A stretch of 54,565 nt of DNA from a virus (Duplodnaviria; Caudoviricetes): positions 1 to 54,565 of IMG/VR virus record IMGVR_UViG_3300044676_000159; one strand, 5' to 3'. Below, in pieces: positions 21,953 to 32,440 of the stretch (positions are counted from its first letter, which is position 1; each line of letters starts with the position of its first letter). Under the pieces are notes generated by a model that saw nothing but the letters and a program-made list of their open reading frames with translations, did no database searches and was not told the origin of the DNA. A program made the position numbers and the translations under genes.

Positions 21953-22849
21953 TTAAGTGCTTTTACCATGTATTTTACGTGCTGTCAATGCAGTATTTGC
22001 ACTTTCATATGTATTTTTCATGTATGGTTTTACTGACTGTGGATTAGCATGTCCTGTAACCGACATGATTTGTGCCATACCGACACCTGCCTCTACCATT
22101 TCAGTTGTGCCAGTACGACGTAGGTCAGATAGTCGCAGTTCATTTGACAATCCTGCCTCATCCATCAACTTACGTGCGTGTAAAGGCAACTTGTACTGGC
22201 TGTAAGGTATATAGCTACCACCAATAGGCTGTGGACGTGGTGCAATATATTGTTGGAACCCAAAGTCTTCATGCTGTTGACGTAACATATCAAGCAAGTC
22301 ATCATCAATAGGTAGGAACACTTCCGCCCTACGCTTTGACTGCTCAATATGCACACGCGCCTCATCAAAATCTATAGCATCCCATGTCAGTAGACGCATG
22401 TCACCTACACGTTGGCACCAAGCGTACGCCATGTGTGCAATCAGCCCAATGTTACGTGTGCTAAAATCGTCATAGGCTACGTCTAGCAGCTTTCTTATAT
22501 CATCCCTACCCCAAAGCACTTTACGTGGCGTGGACGAGCGTCTACGAACGATAGAGAAGGGGTTAAGGTTACAATGCTCCATCCTCACTGCGTAATTAAA
22601 CAGGATACGTATGGTAGACATTATATGATTAGCGAATGGAATACCTCTGTCACACCACAAATCATATAGTAGCTTGGCTTGTTTCGTGGTGATGCTTGCA
22701 TGGTCTAGAGAACCAAGGCTTGCACCATCTATCTTTGTCTCAAATGCGACACGAAGAAAGTATTGGTACGAAGCCTTAGTTTCGTCACGCAAGTTCTTGA
22801 AATCATGGGATAAATAATATTCATCCGCTATTTCCAGAACAGTCGTCAT
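21953..22849 (-). CDS. int: Tyrosine recombinase / integrase
   Basis: CQRVGD, QSK, DLRRT, TGH, PY catalytic pattern. Confidence 0.85.
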   Translation of the reverse strand: MTTVLEIADEYYLSHDFKNLRDETKASYQYFLRVAFETKIDGASLGSLDHASITTKQAKLLYDLWCDRGIPFANHIMSTIRILFNYAVRMEHCNLNPFSIVRRRSSTPRKVLWGRDDIRKLLDVAYDDFSTRNIGLIAHMAYAWCQRVGDMRLLTWDAIDFDEARVHIEQSKRRAEVFLPIDDDLLDMLRQQHEDFGFQQYIAPRPQPIGGSYIPYSQYKLPLHARKLMDEAGLSNELRLSDLRRTGTTEMVEAGVGMAQIMSVTGHANPQSVKPYMKNTYESANTALTARKIHGKST

Positions 22850-22850
22850 G

Positions 22851-23708
22851 CTATGCTGCCCTGACAAGTGACCGGAACTGAGCGGTGTTAATCCACTTGG
22901 TCACATCAAACTCACGTCCAAGCATTGTCTTTGCTTCTGTATCGTTGCCAGTCTCACGCAACTTGAACCCATTACGTTCATCAGCATAGGTTGCATAGTT
23001 GGTGAAGGCAGAGTAGAGGGACCATAGGTTCTGACCACGAGTCACCACTTCCTCACGATATAGGGCGAACATCTTTTCAGCTTGCTTGTCATTCTTCATG
23101 ATGCTTTCAAGCAGAGCCTTGACATCCACATGGACCAATGGACTTTCTGCCCACCTTTGTAGCTGTTCTGTCCTAGCATAGAAGTTATTCTTAGATGCAC
23201 TAAGTTTAAGGATGAATGATTCTATATCAAAGCCACTGGTGTTCTTACGTTTAACCTTGTCATGCTCACCGATAATCATCCCATTGAGGCAGAAGAAATC
23301 AATCGCCCCAAAGATAGCTACGTTTGAGCATGTACCGTTCACCCCATGCAAGGCGATGATACGCTGTTGTACCTCAGTCTCATGGCGAGTGGTAGTGATC
23401 TTGGCAGATACGTTAGGCAGACGAACATCCATGATGGCCATGCCATTGTTGTAGGCATCCTTCCATGTCACTACAGCACCCTCTGTTTCATGAGGCTGAA
23501 GATGCTCAGTCATGGTAGCAGCTACCTTGCGGAAGAAGTCACCGTGGTTCTCGCATTTGAAGCCATCACCGACGATGCCAATGTACTCATCAGTGTTTCC
23601 ATTGATGACATACTTCTGTCCATTCATTTTGGTGTCCTCGTATTTCACAGGGAAATCAAGGTGTTGTGGTACGTCCACAATCGACGGGTTTATATAATCA
23701 AAAGGCAT
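22851..23708 (-). CDS. DUF932-family protein
   Basis: FCLNG motif; NLWSLYSAFTNYAT. Confidence 0.7.
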   Translation of the reverse strand: MPFDYINPSIVDVPQHLDFPVKYEDTKMNGQKYVINGNTDEYIGIVGDGFKCENHGDFFRKVAATMTEHLQPHETEGAVVTWKDAYNNGMAIMDVRLPNVSAKITTTRHETEVQQRIIALHGVNGTCSNVAIFGAIDFFCLNGMIIGEHDKVKRKNTSGFDIESFILKLSASKNNFYARTEQLQRWAESPLVHVDVKALLESIMKNDKQAEKMFALYREEVVTRGQNLWSLYSAFTNYATYADERNGFKLRETGNDTEAKTMLGREFDVTKWINTAQFRSLVRAA

Positions 23709-24891: not shown

Positions 24892-25033
24892 TCTCCTTTG
24901 GATACCATACCTCTACATCACACTTACAATTAGGGCAGTGCAGGGCAGTCATCATTGAATAATATTCGTTTTCGTGGTCAATGTCAAAGTCACTGCCCCA
25001 GATAAGTTCTGTGTTACAGTTCCAGCAGTTCAT
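24866..25033 (-). CDS. Small zinc-ribbon protein (55 aa, not in ORF track)
   Basis: MNCWNCNTELIWG...CPNC; ATGA overlap with upstream gene. Confidence 0.6.
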   Translation of the reverse strand: MNCWNCNTELIWGSDFDIDHENEYYSMMTALHCPNCKCDVEVWYPKENDDEQIFD

Positions 25034-25296
25034 GTGTCAGTATCCTCTGTCAACACCCACCCATTCTGGGCAGAATTTGTCTGCCAATTATCATTCACCC
25101 ATATGCAGTCATAAACTACACAGACAAACTTTCCTGTGTCTTCATCTGCCCATGCGTTCAGGTCAAACATCCTGTCACCAATCTGCACACCAAACCAGTC
25201 CTCGTCACAGCTATCTGCCATAGCATCAAATACAACTGTGTCGTAGTAGGCAGTTAGATAGCCACGTTCATAGTCAGATAATACAAGGTCACTCAT
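25030..25296 (-). CDS. Hypothetical protein
   Basis: Coupled early ORF. Confidence 0.55.
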   Translation of the reverse strand: MSDLVLSDYERGYLTAYYDTVVFDAMADSCDEDWFGVQIGDRMFDLNAWADEDTGKFVCVVYDCIWVNDNWQTNSAQNGWVLTEDTDT

Positions 25297-25490
25297 CGTA
25301 TCACTCCCAGTACCCAATTCTCTGCACAGTCTTCTGCGTATTGCTCACTGTGTCCAGTTATCTTACGCTCCTCAATGATAGCCTTGTCAGCAATCATCAA
25401 CACACTATACCCATCATCTTCCTTGAACACAACAGCCTTTCGTTCAGGATATTTGTCGGGTGTTCCATAAAACTCATGCAGTATTGTCAT
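25293..25490 (-). CDS. Hypothetical protein (HSEQYAEDCAENWV motif)
   Basis: Coupled early ORF. Confidence 0.55.
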   Translation of the reverse strand: MTILHEFYGTPDKYPERKAVVFKEDDGYSVLMIADKAIIEERKITGHSEQYAEDCAENWVLGVIR

Positions 25491-25984
25491 GCTACTTCCT
25501 CCTCGTACTCAGCTATACGTTCACTGATACCAAAATACTCGTCTAGTTCGGGGTGGTGTTCAGCAACACTCTCAACATCATCAATGCACCAGTCATCTCC
25601 ATCAATGTATTCACCGATATACATCCAGCCTTCGTCAAGGTAACGTGCGTTGACCTCAAAGCCCATGTCTACCAGCTTGTCATAGATAGGAATAGGTGGC
25701 GACCATGCAGTGTAGAAATCCAGTGACAATGTGTTAGCGTCAAAGCGATTGCAGTATGTTTCGTACACATCCCACTTGGTACCCCAATTCTCCAGACGCC
25801 ATTCATACCAGCCTTGTGGTTTATAGTCATCTGAAAAGCCAGATATCTCTAGCAACTTCTCATCCATAGGGATAAGTGTCTGGCATAGAGGTGTGTCCTT
25901 TGTGTTCATGATGTTGTAAATCATGTCAATCTGCTGACTGTCTTTGTGGTACAGTATTACACTGTTGTCTGTATGATTAGGCAT
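25487..25984 (-). CDS. DUF1281 / YubB ferredoxin-like domain protein
   Basis: MPNH, WYEWRLENWGTKWD, FYTAWSPP. Confidence 0.7.
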   Translation of the reverse strand: MPNHTDNSVILYHKDSQQIDMIYNIMNTKDTPLCQTLIPMDEKLLEISGFSDDYKPQGWYEWRLENWGTKWDVYETYCNRFDANTLSLDFYTAWSPPIPIYDKLVDMGFEVNARYLDEGWMYIGEYIDGDDWCIDDVESVAEHHPELDEYFGISERIAEYEEEVA

Positions 25985-26016
25985 TGTTCACTTTCTCCTC
26001 TATTGTTGTGTATTAA

Positions 26017-26196
26017 TTATGGATATCTTCTGTTCATATGGTGTGCGACACTCTGCTGGTCAGGTTCGTCGCGGTCAAACCAATAGTCCAGCAGAGTGTA
26101 CTTCACACGTTTAGCATTGGCGCGGATCACTTGTGTCTCAGTCATCCGCCTCTTGTTTATCCGCTTGGTGCGGAATTTGTCTGTCTTCACTCGCAT
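26017..26196 (-). CDS. Basic hypothetical protein
   Basis: MRVKTDKFRTKRINKRR...; purine-rich RBS. Confidence 0.45.
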   Translation of the reverse strand: MRVKTDKFRTKRINKRRMTETQVIRANAKRVKYTLLDYWFDRDEPDQQSVAHHMNRRYP

Positions 26197-26308
26197 TCTT
26201 ATCCCTCTTTCTATTGTATTTCTTTTTGTTTGGCACAACCTGTGCGCGTCTGCGGCTCTGCATCATAGCTTTTGCCACAGGATTTACTCTAGTGATGCGG
26301 TCACTCAT
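26138..26308 (-). CDS. Small basic protein with ArfA-like motif (56 aa, not in ORF track)
   Basis: MSDRITRVNPVAKAMMQSRRRAQVVPNKKKYNRKRDK... Confidence 0.55.
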   Translation of the reverse strand: MSDRITRVNPVAKAMMQSRRRAQVVPNKKKYNRKRDKNASEDRQIPHQADKQEADD

Positions 26309-26310
26309 TG

Positions 26311-26490
26311 TCAACCCCTAAGTTCGTAGATCATCATCCTCAATTCGTCTTGGTATTCCTGTACCCTTGACCAGTCATCATCAGACAGACGGTCTATCTG
26401 TTTTTCTGTCAACAGGTGATGGATATTATACAGGTCAACGATGTCACCATTGGGATAGCGTTCCAGCCTAGCAAAGTCTTGTCGTTTCAT
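26311..26490 (-). CDS. Hypothetical protein (59 aa, not in ORF track)
   Basis: GAGGTGA RBS; MKRQDFARLERYPNGDIVDLY... Confidence 0.6.
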   Translation of the reverse strand: MKRQDFARLERYPNGDIVDLYNIHHLLTEKQIDRLSDDDWSRVQEYQDELRMMIYELRG

Positions 26491-26494
26491 ATCA

Positions 26495-26890
26495 TCACCT
26501 CTTTTGTTTTAATGTACTAATATATAAGCGCAGGGCGGGGAAGTCGCATCTCAAAACGTGCAACAATCACCCGCCCCACTTCGACAGGCTTTCGTTCTTC
26601 TTCAGACCTACTAACCTGTCGCAACATCCAAGGCTGTCCACGAACGCGCGAACTACACCAAGGAATACAAACCGGTGGGCAGTTTAACGACACTTGCCCA
26701 AGGTCGGACGACCGGATGCCATTCAGACCGGTAACAGACTAACACTGTTTCTAGTGAAGGCTTACAGTGAACGCCCACCTGTGTCTTATTTACAGTCGTT
26801 ACAGGCTTAACCGTGTTTATACTCACTCGACTATTAGGTGGGGCAGTGATCGTATCACACGCCCCTGCCATCCCACTACAATCTGGGTTG
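26495..26890 (-). ncRNA. Putative structured non-coding RNA (~400 nt)
   Basis: Intergenic and GC-rich; stems GGGCGGG/CCCGCCC, CGACAGG/CCTGTCG, CCCACCT/AGGTGGG and a pseudoknot. Confidence 0.55.
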
Positions 26891-26892
26891 GC

Positions 26893-27141
26893 CTATTCAT
26901 ATCTACTGGAATCAATCGGGCCACTAAGCGTCTGCGTAGTGTCAAGATATCTCAGATATTCTATCACTTCTGACAGGTCAAGATAACCCTTTACATCAGG
27001 TTCACCCTCTACAGACACCTCACACATATGCTGGTCAACATGTCCATACGCTCCGCCTTCACGTCCTTTGCTATTCTGAATGATGCTCACTTCCCTGCCA
27101 TCGGGAAGCTGTAGCTTGATAATGTTATGTGGTATAGTCAT
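26893..27141 (-). CDS. Hypothetical protein
   Basis: GAGGT RBS; 82 aa. Confidence 0.55.
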   Translation of the reverse strand: MTIPHNIIKLQLPDGREVSIIQNSKGREGGAYGHVDQHMCEVSVEGEPDVKGYLDLSEVIEYLRYLDTTQTLSGPIDSSRYE

Positions 27142-27149
27142 ACCTCACC

Positions 27150-27749
27150 TCACTTGATGTTGTGAATGCGACGCCATGTCACCCATGTAATCGCTTGCAA
27201 TTCAAACGCTTTCAGCGCACGGCCATTGACACGTGTGCGCTTGGCGGCGGCTACATATTCCGCCTGTAATGTCCTGTATTCCTTGACACCGATATTGGTC
27301 TTGTCATCTGTCAAGCCTATACGCTCACCATATGCGATGTTTCGCGCATGTCCATCAATGGTGCAAGTGTCATCACCAATGATGTTGCGATAGAAAGAGA
27401 CAATCTTCTGGCCATTGAGTATATCAATGACGCCATCATGGTCAGGCATTGCCTTGAGTATAGACCATGCTTTTTGTTTCATCTTGTGGTATGTGGACAC
27501 TTTGACACTATCTATTCCATCACCATTGACACGAGCCGTACATAGATCGCGCGTATTGACAATGTTTCTGTCCCATTTATTGTTGGGCGATAATGCCGCA
27601 CAGACACCTGTCACAATATGGACAGGCAGGTCTAAGTCAATGGCAATGCGGGTGCAATCACGAAATGCGTCAGCATACCAGACAATTCCATCACGTTTTT
27701 CTTCTGGCGTAGCCAGCTTGTAGATGGCAAGGATGTTTTCTGTAGACAT
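27150..27749 (-). CDS. Conserved early protein with a possible DNA glycosylase-like fold
   Basis: WY...AALSP...W..N...KIVSFY.NI...TIDGH...LQAITW pattern. Confidence 0.55.
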   Translation of the reverse strand: MSTENILAIYKLATPEEKRDGIVWYADAFRDCTRIAIDLDLPVHIVTGVCAALSPNNKWDRNIVNTRDLCTARVNGDGIDSVKVSTYHKMKQKAWSILKAMPDHDGVIDILNGQKIVSFYRNIIGDDTCTIDGHARNIAYGERIGLTDDKTNIGVKEYRTLQAEYVAAAKRTRVNGRALKAFELQAITWVTWRRIHNIK

Positions 27750-27750
27750 G

Positions 27751-27939
27751 TTACACCTCCGAATTTACAAATTCAATGGCAAGGGAAACCCAGCCACCAA
27801 TAAATGATGCAACCCCACCGATTACAGACACAATCCAAATCCAGTGTCCTGTTTCTAATGCAGCGATTGCGGCAAACACTGTTGCAATGGGAGCCAAGGT
27901 CAGCATAAAGACCAAGCCCATAAATTCCATCTTGCTCAT
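27751..27939 (-). CDS. Small two-helix membrane protein
   Basis: Two hydrophobic segments; GAGGTGA RBS. Confidence 0.55.
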   Translation of the reverse strand: MSKMEFMGLVFMLTLAPIATVFAAIAALETGHWIWIVSVIGGVASFIGGWVSLAIEFVNSEV

Positions 27940-28009
27940 GATAGTCACCTCTTGTGTGGTATGGTTAGGGGGAGCAATGCCCTACGAATAGAGCATTACC
28001 CCCACGAAG

Positions 28010-28390
28010 TCAAGCGGATTTGCGATGCGCGGCCGCACCTGTCGGCGCACACGCAAGTTCAGCAATGTCATCAATCTTGAATGCGCCAAGATCAATCGTG
28101 TGGTTTTTGCGATCCAGCGTCTTGTCAATACCGGTCAGCAACATCTCGAATGTTGTGATCGAATTAGACAAAATGCGGGTGCCAAACTCGTCTTTAATCT
28201 GACGTGCCGCATTACGGCTGGCCCTGTAGCAACGCATCTTGGACAGCTTTTGTCCCGTCTTGCGCTTGTACTTGGTAGCAACGCGAGTGAATTTGTTCTG
28301 GTTGTGTTCAGACAAATTCTGACCGGTCAGACCGGTGCCTTGGAACCAGTAGCCAACATTGACATTGATATTGATAGCTTGCTTAGACAT
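28010..28390 (-). CDS. First early gene, basic hypothetical protein
   Basis: GAGGTGA RBS; K/R-rich; GC-rich third codon positions. Confidence 0.65.
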   Translation of the reverse strand: MSKQAININVNVGYWFQGTGLTGQNLSEHNQNKFTRVATKYKRKTGQKLSKMRCYRASRNAARQIKDEFGTRILSNSITTFEMLLTGIDKTLDRKNHTIDLGAFKIDDIAELACAPTGAAAHRKSA

Positions 28391-28399
28391 GATATTCAC

Positions 28400-28980
28400 C
28401 TCGTGGTTGGTTAGGTTATGGGTGTGACATTACACCCCCTAACAACACCTGTCAAGAGTGTACCGGCGACCATGCTTAACTGCCCCGAAGGACTAGCGCA
28501 CTGTCGCCGGTATCTTGTCATAATCCCGATTTTCACCTGACTTGCTATCGTCAGTTTTTCACACCTCTTGCGTCAGCGGCATGTCCAAGGACAGCTAGGG
28601 CATCTGCGGTCGGTATAGATACTTGTCGGGTTTTCGTATAGTTAGAGTGCTTGTTTCAGCCACACCCTGCCAAAGTTTATAGTTCGCCTTGGCCTACAGT
28701 ACCCGCTACGCCAGCCTGTAGTTCATGCTTTACGCCCTCTTCACATTGACCACCCCGGAGATTTTAACTGGGCCTTGTCTTGTCATACACCTGCCGCCTT
28801 GGTAGCATGTGCTGTGTCAGGATAGTTTCCCAGCCTTGACAGACTCCGGTAGCCTACGCCCTGTCCACGTTACAGTGTGAGTTCGTTTCTTTATAGACGG
28901 CTGGCCATTTATCGCCACCACTTTAGCCGTCTTTAGTCTTGGCCACTTTATAGTCGGATCAATTCGCCTTCCCGACTGTT
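28400..28980 (-). ncRNA. Putative large structured non-coding RNA or 5' leader (~580 nt)
   Basis: No ORF of 60 aa or more in any frame from 28415 to 29136; starts just below a consensus promoter; many nested inverted repeats. Confidence 0.6.
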
Positions 28981-28985
28981 CTTTT

Positions 28986-29014
28986 AGTCTATTCTAATCG
29001 TATTCGATAGTCAA
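28986..29014 (-). promoter_or_regulatory. Early sigma70-type promoter TTGACT-N17-TAGACT with A-rich UP element
   Basis: -35 at 29014-29009, -10 at 28991-28986, A-tracts upstream. Confidence 0.65.
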
Positions 29015-29029
29015 GGGGTTTTTTATTTT

Positions 29030-29195
29030 CGCTTGCTATGTGGGCAACCCCTAGCCTTACAAGCTACACCGAATTTTATTGGCCTATCGGTTTACCTTAG
29101 TCTGTATCACATAGACCCGCTGGCCACGTTTGCAAGCTAAAACCTTGTTATCTCACCCCTAGGGCTTTGTAGCTGGTTTGTCGCTGTTTGTTCTG
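29030..29195 (-). ncRNA. Putative small structured RNA (~170 nt)
   Basis: GC-rich island with AGCTACA/TGTAGCT, GCTTGC/GCAAGC and CTATGTG/CACATAG pairings. Confidence 0.35.
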
Positions 29196-29781
29196 CGATG
29201 ATTTGATTAGACACGAAACTGATTTGAAACACAACAAAAAAGATTCTTAATGTTTTCAATGGCTTACTGATTAACCTATTGAATTTATTGATAAATAAAA
29301 ATGCAGACTGATTGCACTTTTTTTGAATATGTAATGTTTTCAAGGGGATAGGATATTTTTCTTTTATATATATAAAGTGTCATGTGTTTGTTCTGTGTTT
29401 GTTCTTGTTGTTTTGGTGCATCGTCCTTTCATCTGTTGCAGAAATGTCACATCGTTGCTTTTTTGCCACATATTATATCGTCAAATGATAGTCAATCAGT
29501 TATCTATTGACAGAATGTCTAGCCATTTCAAGGTGTTAGCATTGCTTTGAGACATTTTGCTGGCAAATCGGGTGAAATGGCGGCAAGACAAAGGAAAATC
29601 AAGAGGGTAGGCAGGGGCCACCGCCGGGTATAGCGTATATGTATACATAGAAATACACAGATCAGTAAAATTGAGTGTTAACCACAATGACAACTGACAC
29701 TCATATATGCACAAGTACTGCACAATCTGCCTATTTTTTAGGCAATTGTACATTAATTTGGGTGGATTTGCATTTTATGTA

Positions 29782-29810
29782 TTGACACGGTACCCGTAAT
29801 CTGGTATAAT
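29782..29810 (+). promoter_or_regulatory. Consensus sigma70 promoter TTGACA-N17-TATAAT with extended -10
   Basis: Perfect hexamers upstream of the rightward arm. Confidence 0.8.
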
Positions 29811-29831
29811 TATATAAACTAAACGAACATA

Positions 29832-29920
29832 CACTATAAGTGATCACTTAAATGTTATTTAGTAAAATTATAAATACACTTAAATGGACACTTAAGTGAT
29901 GCGAACTATCACTTAAAGTG
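29832..29920. repeat. Five copies of a near-palindromic CACT(T/A)...TG repeat (core CACTTAA)
   Basis: cactataagtg 29832, cacttaaatg 29845, cacttaaatg 29877, cacttaagtg 29889, cacttaaagtg 29910. Confidence 0.75.
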
Positions 29921-29946
29921 ACAATAATGAAAGTTTTTTCTTGACA

Positions 29947-30162
29947 ATGGCAAAGAAATCTGTAAAACTATACACAGACAATGTACTTGATGCATTTTAT
30001 CATGCTATCCGTACCAACTCCCTAGATAAACTTCATATCCCACATAGTGATGTGTTCTTTGTGCGTAAGGCAGTTGAGGCTCACTATGGTCGTTCATTCT
30101 CTTTGAAGCATGTAGAGGACGCAATGAGAGCAGAGGGATGGAAAGAACCTAGTGAGGAATAA
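29947..30162 (+). CDS. Hypothetical protein
   Basis: First ORF of the rightward arm. Confidence 0.55.
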   Translation: MAKKSVKLYTDNVLDAFYHAIRTNSLDKLHIPHSDVFFVRKAVEAHYGRSFSLKHVEDAMRAEGWKEPSEE

Positions 30163-30165
30163 AAA

Positions 30166-30363
30166 ATGTTTGAAGCATGGGTACTGGTTTGTATAGCGGG
30201 GCAGTTAAACCAATGCATATCCGCTAGAGACACTAGAGGTCCGTATGAGACTATAGAGCAGTGTCAAGACCGTACAGTTGAAATGTCCGCATCCATACTA
30301 AACACAATTCCAAATCATATTCCTGTAGATTCTAAATGCATTAAATTGGGAACAGCAACGTAA
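30166..30363 (+). CDS. Small exported or membrane-anchored Cys protein
   Basis: Hydrophobic N-terminus, four Cys. Confidence 0.55.
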   Translation: MFEAWVLVCIAGQLNQCISARDTRGPYETIEQCQDRTVEMSASILNTIPNHIPVDSKCIKLGTAT

Positions 30364-30656
30364 TGGCTATACCTGAAAGAGTAAAAAACAAGATGAAGGA
30401 GGAAGGGCTGTCCGGTGTGAACAAGCCTAAGAGAACTCCTAATCATCCAACGAAGTCTCATTGTGTAATGGCATCAGAGGGTGGTAAATATAAATTTATA
30501 CGCTTCGGTCAGCAAGGCGTTAAAGGTGCTGGCAAGAGTCCTAAGACAGCGAAGGATAAAGCACGTAAGCGTAGCTATTACGCACGTCATGATGCACAAG
30601 GTAAGCCGACCACTAAGCTATCAGCAAAATATTGGTCGCATAAAGTAAAATGGTAG
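30363..30656 (+). CDS. Basic conserved viral protein (IRFG...SYYARH...YWS family)
   Basis: Motif recognised from small basic viral proteins. Confidence 0.65.
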   Translation: MAIPERVKNKMKEEGLSGVNKPKRTPNHPTKSHCVMASEGGKYKFIRFGQQGVKGAGKSPKTAKDKARKRSYYARHDAQGKPTTKLSAKYWSHKVKW

Positions 30657-30665
30657 GAGATTAAG

Positions 30666-30944
30666 ATGTCTGACATGAGACCTTCAGAAGCAATGCGGAT
30701 TATGGAAAATCCAGAAGACTATACCGTACAGGAGCGTAAGGACGCTAAACGTGTACTTATGGAGTATGGACCTAAAACATCTAAGGACAAGACAGGTGGA
30801 CTTCGTGTAGATATTACACTGCCTACGCCAAAGCCAAAGCGTAAAGCTAAAGGTGGTTATGCAAAGAAGTACAATAAAGGTGGCTATGCTAACTGTGGGG
30901 CATCTATGAAGCCTACACAGAAATCTACACAGAAAATGGGATAA
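30666..30944 (+). CDS. Basic hypothetical protein with two xxKGG motifs
   Basis: AGGAG RBS; KAKGG and YNKGG. Confidence 0.6.
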   Translation: MSDMRPSEAMRIMENPEDYTVQERKDAKRVLMEYGPKTSKDKTGGLRVDITLPTPKPKRKAKGGYAKKYNKGGYANCGASMKPTQKSTQKMG

Positions 30945-30949
30945 GTAAG

Positions 30950-31066
30950 ATGGCTACACTTAAAAAAGCACCCGCTGGTAACAAAGGTTTGAAGAAGCTG
31001 CCTACTCCTGTGCGCAATAAAATGGGCTACATGAAAAAGGGCGGTATGGCGAAAAAGAAGAAGTAA
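30950..31066 (+). CDS. Lys-rich peptide (38 aa, not in ORF track)
   Basis: MATLKKAPAGNKGLKKLPTPVRNKMGYMKKGGMAKKKK. Confidence 0.6.
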   Translation: MATLKKAPAGNKGLKKLPTPVRNKMGYMKKGGMAKKKK

Positions 31067-31177
31067 ATGGCAAAGCAATATGCCAACAGCTTCATGAAGA
31101 AGAAGCGTATTCGCCGTCCGGGTGTTCACAAAAAGAATGTGAATAAGCGGAATAAAACTAAAACTTATTTTGGATAA
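31067..31177 (+). CDS. Lys/Arg-rich peptide (36 aa, not in ORF track)
   Basis: MAKQYANSFMKKKRIRRPGVHKKNVNKRNKTKTYFG; abuts both neighbours. Confidence 0.5.
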   Translation: MAKQYANSFMKKKRIRRPGVHKKNVNKRNKTKTYFG

Positions 31178-31180
31178 ACG

Positions 31181-32440
31181 ATGAGCATTACAAGCTACCC
31201 AGATTATACACGCCTGACTAGCACTGGCGGTGGTAACATTGTTAAGTTTGATAACTCTACATTGGATGCCTTTGGCAGACTGCGGGTAAGTTCTCCATTT
31301 ACGCTGTTTGACAGTCAGAATAGATTTGAATCAGATAACCAGTTTGATACTGGTCTGACAGGCAGTGCAACTTTTAGCCACCTCCCGAACGAAAGTAGCT
31401 GTGCGCTTTCTGTGACTACAGCATCCGGTGATGAAGTCATACGTGAAACAAAACGTGTGTTTCCTTACCAGCCGGGTAAGTCTTTGCTGACACTATGCAC
31501 TTTTGTGATGGCTCCAACGCAAACTAACTTGCGCCAGCGTGTTGGATACTTCGGTGTTAATGATGGTGTATTCTTTGAGTTGAACGGTACAGACAAACGG
31601 TTTGTGCTGCGTACATCAACAAGTGGTAGTTCCAGTGACGCACGATACGTTACACAGGCTGATTGGAATGTAGATAAGTTGGACGGCACTGGACCAAGTG
31701 GAACAACCTTAGACATAACCAAGTCACAAATTTTTATTGCAGATTACGAGTGGCTAGGTGTTGGACGAGTCAGAGTTGGTTTTGTAATTGATGGTGAAAT
31801 CGTAGTTGCTCACGAGTTTTACAACGCTAATAATTTAGATGTTGTCTACATGAAGACTGCCATCTTGCCAATCCGATACGAGATTACAGCTACTGGTACT
31901 CTTTCTACTGCCGCTACTATGAAGCAAATTTGTAGCACTGTTATCAGTGAAGGGGGCTACCAGCAAGACGTAAATGAACTTACGGCACAGCGTGTATCAC
32001 CCCTTACCACAATTGGACTAACGCCTAAACCCCTTGTGTCTGTGCGTTTAAATTCAGGCTCTCTGGATGCGGTCGTACTTCCACAAATTATCAAGGTATT
32101 GCCGACTACTGGACAGGACTATATCATCCGGCTTGTTCGCAATGGTACATTAACGGGTGCTTCGTGGAATACCGGCACATTTACCAACGTGGACTATGAC
32201 GTTACTGCCACCGCTATTACGGGTGGTACAGTATTGCAAGTTGATTACATCACCAACACGGTACAGGCTGGTAGCGGTATTGACAATCCAACAGGCTATA
32301 AGTGGTCCCTTCAACTAGGTAGAACACTTGCTGGTGTAAGTGACATTGTGACCCTTACAATACAGACAGCGGTAAGTGCTACACCTTCAGGGGATGCAAT
32401 AGGCGCACTTGTATTTTACGATTTAACCAACGGAGCATAA
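31181..32440 (+). CDS. Beta-rich putative virion protein (DAFGRLRVS family)
   Basis: DAFGRLRVSSPFTLFDS, YQPGKS, EWLGVGRVR motifs. Confidence 0.6.
   Translation: MSITSYPDYTRLTSTGGGNIVKFDNSTLDAFGRLRVSSPFTLFDSQNRFESDNQFDTGLTGSATFSHLPNESSCALSVTTASGDEVIRETKRVFPYQPGKSLLTLCTFVMAPTQTNLRQRVGYFGVNDGVFFELNGTDKRFVLRTSTSGSSSDARYVTQADWNVDKLDGTGPSGTTLDITKSQIFIADYEWLGVGRVRVGFVIDGEIVVAHEFYNANNLDVVYMKTAILPIRYEITATGTLSTAATMKQICSTVISEGGYQQDVNELTAQRVSPLTTIGLTPKPLVSVRLNSGSLDAVVLPQIIKVLPTTGQDYIIRLVRNGTLTGASWNTGTFTNVDYDVTATAITGGTVLQVDYITNTVQAGSGIDNPTGYKWSLQLGRTLAGVSDIVTLTIQTAVSATPSGDAIGALVFYDLTNGA

Follow-up and report, generated by a model that had tools for sequence, protein, structure and literature searches.

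Positions 28461–28985 on the minus strand of an uncultured marine phage (IMG/VR virus record IMGVR_UViG_3300044676_000159) are the gene for a large, promoter-proximal and highly structured non-coding RNA. The DNA analysed here, the window, is the entire virus record of 54,565 bases (completeness estimate 99%), and an earlier note on it was right to take the phage for one of the HMO-2011 type: its DNA polymerase, a core gene, is nearest to those of HMO-2011 and the CRP roseophages, with 76.5% identity to that of Puniceispirillum phage HMO-2011, 69.5% to that of roseophage CRP-345 and 68.5% to that of CRP-1. The RNA would start at about 28979, behind a promoter that we call P1, and its 3′ end is probably defined by a terminal hairpin that ends at 28461, which gives a length of ~520 nucleotides (nt); adding a further covarying hairpin extends it to 28420 (~560 nt).

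Relatives of the RNA were collected by several routes. The 126-residue protein encoded by the first early gene retrieved 11 IMG/VR loci, in nine of which the upstream stretch aligns by blastn (70–97% identity, in mosaic blocks), and a profile of the same protein retrieved 43 loci (locus numbers with the prefix L are ours). A pattern of the terminal hairpin found 36 stretches, 19 of them real by context, while a pattern of the core domain found 43, of which 15 were real and seven of these lay on additional loci; one metagenome scan found 25 stretches, and 20 were confirmed by a covariance model. Such scans by exact patterns cover only the commonest core type. The core covariance model matches 43 copies (41 distinct) in uncultured HMO-2011-type contigs, including a divergent, AT-richer subfamily that scores 45–62 bits and a reduced form without part of the core that scores 25–36 bits. 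Synteny is identical in all copies, after the promoter or promoters and before the early genes, modules have been exchanged among lineages, and indels of any length separate the copies from one another. Elsewhere, the core model found nothing better than an E-value of 0.2 in the genomes of the cultured phages HMO-2011, CRP-345 and CRP-1, blastn of the RNA region against 50,697 phage records gave no match, and a pattern scan of 185,579 species genomes, for the commonest core type only, gave a single stretch that the model rejected and no lead to a prophage or a host. When the window was searched with two invariant segments, other copies, antisense ones included, turned up at chance level only. 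By eye, the ~930 unannotated bases at the junction of the HMO-2011 record (L085 2786–3283 plus L084 1–432) appear to hold several small open reading frames (ORFs) with ribosome-binding sites and no counterpart of the RNA.

Among these relatives, the covariation test that the earlier note had proposed gave strong compensatory pairing, beyond both shuffled and slid controls, in a core domain and in a 3′ domain (Table 1). The core comprises a closing helix with an AA/GG internal loop, hairpin P2c (28856–28870), helix P4c (28844–28854 with 28748–28760), a GAAA-loop hairpin (28819–28836) and hairpin P6c (28788–28811), whose loop contains CCAAGG, and its helices were first derived from a comparison of subtypes and then formally tested with a model of 160 positions and 32 pairs. 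In the 41 distinct sequences, aligned by fitting to the covariance model, a procedure that favours the model, 89.3% of the cells are in standard pairs against 72.3% in shuffles (0 of 500 as high), 26 of the 32 pairs are changed on both sides against 18.3 in the shuffles, and the covariation score is 0.477 against 0.184; with the partners slid by one to three columns, 32–43% of the cells are paired and the scores are 0.04–0.10. The set of 24 sequences agrees (~88% of cells paired against 72% shuffled; 24/32 pairs changed on both sides). A MAFFT alignment with RNAalifold independently recovers two of the core helices with compensatory changes; applied to full-length copies aligned as a whole by MAFFT, RNAalifold returned almost no structure, because the variable modules misalign. 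The pseudoknotted core also holds many invariant unpaired nucleotides.

The 3′ domain was analysed as two subgroups with MAFFT and RNAalifold. It consists of a closing helix (28626–28630 with 28525–28529), a long irregular hairpin (28560–28618) with CCUUGG at its tip, and a second hairpin (28537–28554). Among 13 distinct window-type sequences 94.2% of the cells are paired against 82.7% when shuffled, with 17/37 pairs compensatory, and among 10 other-type sequences the figures are 94.4%, 84.9% and 29/70; because each structure was derived from the alignment on which it was scored, the difference from the slid controls is inflated. At the other end of the RNA the stem of hairpin H1 varies (GUCGG/CCGAC, CUCCC/GGGAG, CACCC/GGGUG and GUUGC/GCAAC) and its loop is kept.

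Three further contacts lie outside the nested model and were tested by pairing strands within sequences and across them. In pseudoknot PK1 at least five contiguous pairs form in 11/14 distinct strand combinations as against 23% of the cross combinations, and the pairing is kept by seven different helix sequences. Most relatives have a second pseudoknot, PK2, between the 13-nt loop of hairpin H7 and a stretch ~50–60 nt downstream; the common loop is shared by 20 sequences, and in these 7/8 distinct combinations keep its variable dinucleotide complementary, as against 11% of the cross combinations. The H7 loop of the window is of its own type, for which at most 4–5 possible PK2 pairs were seen. 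The third contact joins the core loop to the 3′-domain loop as either CCAAGG:CCUUGG or CCAAGU:ACUUGG, and all 30 of the first-collected sequences are fully complementary, 21 in one form and nine in the other; by eye, so are 10 of 11 later sequences, the remaining one (L148) pairing at 5/6 positions. The switch can be seen inside a close clade, where L101 differs from its L030-type relatives in both loops together. Among paired cells, G-U or U-G far outnumbers A-C or C-A (87 against 14 in the core, 45 against 5 in the 3′ domain), and the RNA sense is therefore the minus strand of the window.

The reduced form (L011, L017 and L042; L136 by eye) has neither hairpin P2c nor PK1 and retains the loop-loop contact and the terminal hairpin. 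In one lineage, seen in eight other loci (L053, L062, L076, L125, L126, L129, L130 and L157), the otherwise invariant inner segment of the terminal hairpin has been swapped for another conserved one, and the covarying outer stem stays.

Table 1. Features of the RNA gene and its surroundings in the window (P, promoter; PK, pseudoknot; bp, base pairs).
Feature	Positions	Strand	Description or basis
Promoter P1	28986–29030	−	A-rich tract 29019–29029; −35 TTGACT 29009–29014; 17-nt spacer; −10 TAGACT 28986–28991
5′ hairpin H1	28952–28977	−	6-bp stem, conserved 14-nt loop; at the predicted 5′ end, then A-rich linker
Hairpin H2	28895–28932	−	8-bp stem; variable 5′-domain module, A-rich linker after; relatives with other stems and lengths
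Core domain	28732–28886	−	Covariance model; pair counts on 24 and 41 distinct sequences
Pseudoknot PK1	28838–28865	−	P2c loop 28861–28865 pairs with 28838–28842; crosses P2c and P4c
Loop-loop contact	28797–28802 with 28585–28590	−	CCAAGG core loop with CCUUGG 3′-domain loop, 6 bp
Hairpin H7	28694–28721	−	13-nt loop, PK2 partner in most relatives; 100% of cells paired in other-type subgroup
Hairpins H8a and H8b	28669–28693, 28644–28668	−	Variable module, read from sequence and fold of the window only
3′ junction domain	28525–28630	−	RNAalifold and pair counts, window-type sequences
Terminal hairpin	28461–28512	−	10-bp covarying lower stem, invariant internal segment, short covarying upper stem with tetraloop
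Promoter P2	28420–28455	−	TTGACA 28450–28455; N17; TAATGT 28427–28432; covarying hairpin around −10, 28420–28437
First early gene	28010–28390	−	126-residue protein, no Pfam or PHROG family

All of the stems that the earlier note had picked out are present in the window, and the 5′ hairpin, CCGGAG/CUCCGG, CUGAC/GUCAG and the 10-bp terminal stem covary in relatives. In place of AGACGGCU/AGCCGUCU relatives have, by eye, a different stem, the relatives' hairpin at CUACAG/CUGUAG likewise has another stem, and GCCAAGG/CUUUGGC and AGGGUGU/GCACUCU belong to a variable module found in the window only. CUGGG/CCCAG has partial support and competes with the local GAAA-loop hairpin.

The region also folds better than dinucleotide-shuffled sequence, the comparison that had been called for: the minimum free energy of a 586-nt stretch is −196.5 kcal/mol against −176.7 ± 6.3 in 100 shuffles (z −3.15; no shuffle equal). 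As had been claimed, no ORF of 60 residues or more separates the promoter from the first gene; the longest one there has 41 residues and a GTG start (28411–28536, minus strand). In 30 copies the longest ORF ranges from 34 to 102 residues, and none is shared in place, strand or start codon. The promoter in front of the RNA is weak by scan alone but its −35 box and upstream A-rich tract are conserved in relatives, both in the alignment and in the upstream stretches; TTGACT-N17-TAGACT (29014–28986) scores 9/12, which alone is not significant against a background of 10 promoter-like sites per 2.2 kb (4.6 ± 2.6 in shuffles). Two or three near-identical promoters in tandem precede the RNA in L019, L022, L025 and L042. 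The statement that the block is richer in G+C than its flanks applies to one side: its G+C content is 0.48–0.525, well above the AT-rich upstream side (0.265–0.455) but barely above the downstream genes (0.46–0.505).

A second promoter-like site, P2, follows the terminal hairpin in every lineage (−35 TTGACA, TTGACT or TTTACA, then 16–18 bases and a −10-like hexamer). A regular expression finds it in 35/41 copies, the six misses being due to the extraction window or to a C at the last −10 position, and in the divergent subfamily the −10 hexamer is a perfect TATAAT. Most simply, P2 would be a second promoter, for the early genes. The earlier description of the RNA as the head of the early transcript thus needs qualifying: the RNA does lie behind an early promoter, but with P2 between it and the first gene, the genes need not depend on transcripts that carry it. 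The inverted repeat over the −10 of P2 has arms that covary among lineages, G-U pairs included, and could be an RNA hairpin of read-through transcripts or an operator. Two lineages, L018 and L044, have a T-run after the terminal hairpin, and beyond it a new promoter and a different first gene.

The first early gene accompanies the RNA closely. Its 126-residue product is encoded in 20/20 RNA loci with enough downstream DNA, directly after the RNA in 18, and, conversely, the RNA core lies upstream in 35 of the 43 loci that encode the protein or a relative; L136 has a variant by eye and two loci end too early, and the five without such an RNA upstream encode proteins 36–55% identical to that of the window. 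Such linkage is what a single phage lineage would be expected to show and is no sign of binding. A tblastn search with the protein against the 50,697 phage records gave no match, and its structure model, of three helices (predicted local distance difference test score 63.7), had no Foldseek match at E ≤ 0.001.

Sequence from the RNA region is present in RNA libraries. In an index search six RNA libraries held a small share of the stretch, and four metatranscriptome libraries from four studies hold contigs of 167–474 nt on 28525–28979 with 90–95% likeness, i.e., from relatives; those parts of the stretch that such contigs leave uncovered carry no meaning. In one small metatranscriptome run (X22) only two contigs fall on 25000–32000, one on the ~520-nt RNA and one on the stretch 26505–26895, to which we return below.

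Comparison with known RNAs points to something new. The earlier note could not match the RNA to ROOL or GOLLD by eye; no Rfam 15 family, these two included, reaches its gathering score anywhere in the window, and group I and II introns, RNase P RNA, transfer-messenger RNA (tmRNA), 6S RNA and packaging RNA (pRNA) are among the models without a match there. A scan of the RNA region at E-values up to 10 gave only two hits, both at chance level (a pseudoknot of a plant virus and a small nucleolar RNA of a herpesvirus), the loci of 11 relatives gave no Rfam match except tRNA, and ARAGORN found no tRNA or tmRNA in the window. The further claim that the RNA is undescribed agrees with our literature searches, which found no description in work on HMO-2011-type phages, on large phage RNAs and on ROOL/GOLLD from 2023; in the main paper on HMO-2011-type phages (PMC9038755) the words non-coding, intergenic and promoter are absent. 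On these sequence comparisons the RNA is a new family of large phage RNA with a complex fold.

What the RNA does can be argued from its setting and variation. We tentatively favour, above each single alternative, a stand-alone RNA of ~520 nt that acts in trans as a scaffold or decoy and possibly associates with itself. Host RNA polymerase would start at P1, presumably early in infection, and the transcript would fold into a 5′ hairpin domain, the pseudoknotted core, a second pseudoknotted domain, the 3′ junction domain and the terminal hairpin, with the 6-bp contact connecting the core loop to the 3′-domain loop. The 3′ end would be set at the terminal hairpin, where the transcript would be processed or, in some relatives, terminated. 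With the early genes using their own promoter P2, the folded RNA might then act on some macromolecule of host or phage, as its scaffold or decoy, or self-associate, as is suspected for ROOL and GOLLD. We prefer this trans-acting RNA because the genes have the separate promoter P2, because two lineages (L018 and L044) combine a terminator-like end with another first gene, because modules are swapped among lineages, as in accessory take-over functions, and because close relatives do without the RNA. By its module swaps, and by the absence of the core from HMO-2011, CRP-345 and CRP-1, the RNA is to all appearances an accessory, fast-evolving element.

Several points weigh against a trans-acting RNA. 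The metatranscriptome evidence consists of assembled contigs that give no ends, strand or level and could stem from DNA carry-over, and one of these contigs reaches upstream of P1. In the promoter and terminator scan and in the sequences themselves, a terminator after the terminal hairpin is absent from the window and most relatives, and transcription from P1 probably continues into the early genes; the G-U-containing hairpin over the P2 −10 suggests a role at the RNA level beyond the supposed end of the RNA. The neighbouring protein carries no RNA-binding signal in family scans or the fold search, and as all copies share a single synteny, context cannot separate action in trans from action in cis.

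The main rival, which we consider less probable than a trans-acting RNA, is that the element acts in cis as the leader of the leftward early operon (~18 kb), the nascent folded RNA staying with the transcribing polymerase or the mRNA to bring about antitermination or to govern how the early mRNA is processed or how stable it is; processing would take place at the terminal hairpin. Its place directly behind an early promoter, or behind tandem promoters in relatives, fits such a leader, as do the want of an intrinsic terminator between RNA and genes in the window, the covarying G-U-containing hairpin before the first gene, and a terminal hairpin of ~two helical turns with internal bulges (in the minimum free energy fold); partial family scans, moreover, named no phage RNA polymerase or antiterminator protein. 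Yet the conserved P2 would start transcripts without the RNA, L018 and L044 have their terminator-like T-run and different first gene, related phages with the same operon layout manage without the RNA, and ~500 nt with two pseudoknots far exceeds, to our knowledge, the needs of known cis antiterminator RNAs.

We regard it as rather improbable that the complementary loops make intermolecular contacts, by which the RNA, as infection begins, would form an RNA-only multimer or join a host machine (RNA polymerase or the ribosome, for instance) in a large particle; if true, the phenomenon known from ROOL and GOLLD would also occur in marine phages of alphaproteobacteria, in an RNA of unrelated fold. 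It is very unlikely that the RNA is catalytic or mobile, for instance a degenerate self-splicing intron or a ribozyme of the self-cleaving or ligating kind: the many invariant unpaired nucleotides of the pseudoknotted core and a size within the range of group I introns would suit one, but there is no Rfam intron, RNase P or small ribozyme match even at E-values up to 10, both sides are non-coding or promoter in place of flanking exons, and the metatranscriptome contigs show no joints over the RNA, except one replacement upstream of P1. We give still less credence to an element at the DNA level (a replication origin, packaging site or operators), for although the region holds many inverted repeats and adjoins an AT-rich stretch between divergent blocks, it has a conserved promoter in front, its pseudoknots and long-range pairs covary, and it tolerates G-U and not A-C, an asymmetry possible only in an RNA of one strand. 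Least credible of all are tiling short ORFs, since those of 26–41 residues that occur in the window's RNA region have no counterpart conserved in place, strand or start among the 30 copies, which differ by indels of any length and by substitutions that arrive as compensating pairs.

The RNA lies where the two gene blocks of the genome diverge. Leftward genes run from ~28.4 kb down to 10.8 kb and encode, among other products, a family A DNA polymerase, a class II ribonucleotide reductase, a primase and an integrase; the last is a tyrosine-integrase-like gene (21953–22867, minus strand; PHROG integrase, E-value 1e-35), which suggests temperate potential. Rightward genes begin at ~29.9 kb, and in the AT-rich gap between the blocks (G+C content 0.27–0.42 at 29200–29900) a perfect consensus promoter (TTGACA, 17 nt, TATAAT with TG; 29782–29810, plus strand) faces them. 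Within the leftward early operon, 26505–26895 (minus strand) is a second ORF-poor stretch with mosaic conservation, a fold z of −4.29, three CCUUGG motifs within 75 nt and no match in an Rfam scan; it may be a second structured RNA. As a separate matter, we considered these three motifs as targets of the core loop in trans and rejected the idea because the cluster is confined to the window and the relative closest to it and is unlinked to loop type in other lineages; CCTTGG is not enriched in the window (18 found, 20.6 expected). Four relatives carry a tRNA-Trp (anticodon CCA) in the early operon (L002 5285–5358, L003 5186–5259, L007 5406–5479 and L008 5658–5731), ~1.3–1.8 kb downstream of the terminal hairpin of the RNA. 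The L002 copy immediately precedes the counterpart of the 26505–26895 stretch; in place of a tRNA the window has an ORF of 82 residues there.

Few large RNAs have complex conserved folds, and among the known classes several proved to be ribozymes, sensors or giant assemblies. The present one stands at the very start of the early region in relatives of an abundant ocean phage type, which raises the question of host take-over; PMC9038755 describes the HMO-2011 type as dominant and widespread in the ocean. The absence of the RNA from close relatives makes an accessory device for take-over or counter-defence probable and gives meaning to gain-and-loss experiments. The 41 natural variants with their clear compensatory changes make it a well-defined target for structure work, and proof that it forms an assembly of a new sort, or that it is a device directed at polymerase, would make it a new class.

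Among known systems, the phi29-type pRNA is a phage non-coding RNA from an early promoter whose two complementary loops covary among relatives. The marine RNA resembles it in its early promoter and in its complementary covarying loops but is about three times larger, has another fold and no Rfam match; an essential part in packaging is excluded by the ordinary genome layout of the phage group and by the absence of the RNA from close relatives. The put antiterminator RNA of phage HK022 (~70 nt, two stem-loops) lies directly downstream of a phage early promoter used by host polymerase. Like put, the marine RNA is a folded RNA directly behind a phage early promoter, position being the sole shared trait that we checked; unlike put, it is ~520 nt long with pseudoknots and has promoter P2 downstream. 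The early region of phage T7 has tandem host promoters, an untranslated leader and an RNase III hairpin before the first early gene, and here too there are strong host-type promoters (tandem in relatives), a long untranslated stretch and, before the first gene, a hairpin ~two turns long that contains an internal loop. The T7 leader is not known to have a conserved complex fold, whereas in the marine RNA the conserved feature is the fold.

The structured-RNA candidates that Fremin, Bhatt and Kyrpides (2023; PMC10690425) drew from IMG/VR come from the same source as the window, and single hairpins of the marine RNA could be among them; the 8,495 candidates are only 29–151 nt each. The nearest analogues in kind are ROOL and GOLLD, which are likewise phage-borne, several hundred nucleotides long and equipped with multiple pseudoknots and covarying loop-loop contacts, and whose protein partner and function are likewise not established. 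The marine RNA matches neither of their Rfam models and is therefore not homologous to them, and, unlike these RNAs, which according to one study (10.1101/2024.12.08.627333) often occur near tRNA genes or islands in phages or prophages, it sits behind the early promoter of an HMO-2011-type podophage and not next to a tRNA gene. In the same study, a ROOL kissing loop first taken from covariation as intramolecular proved to be intermolecular (10.1101/2024.12.08.627333), and the covarying complementary loops described here are, as sequence features, compatible with an RNA-only homo-oligomer such as ROOL and GOLLD form.

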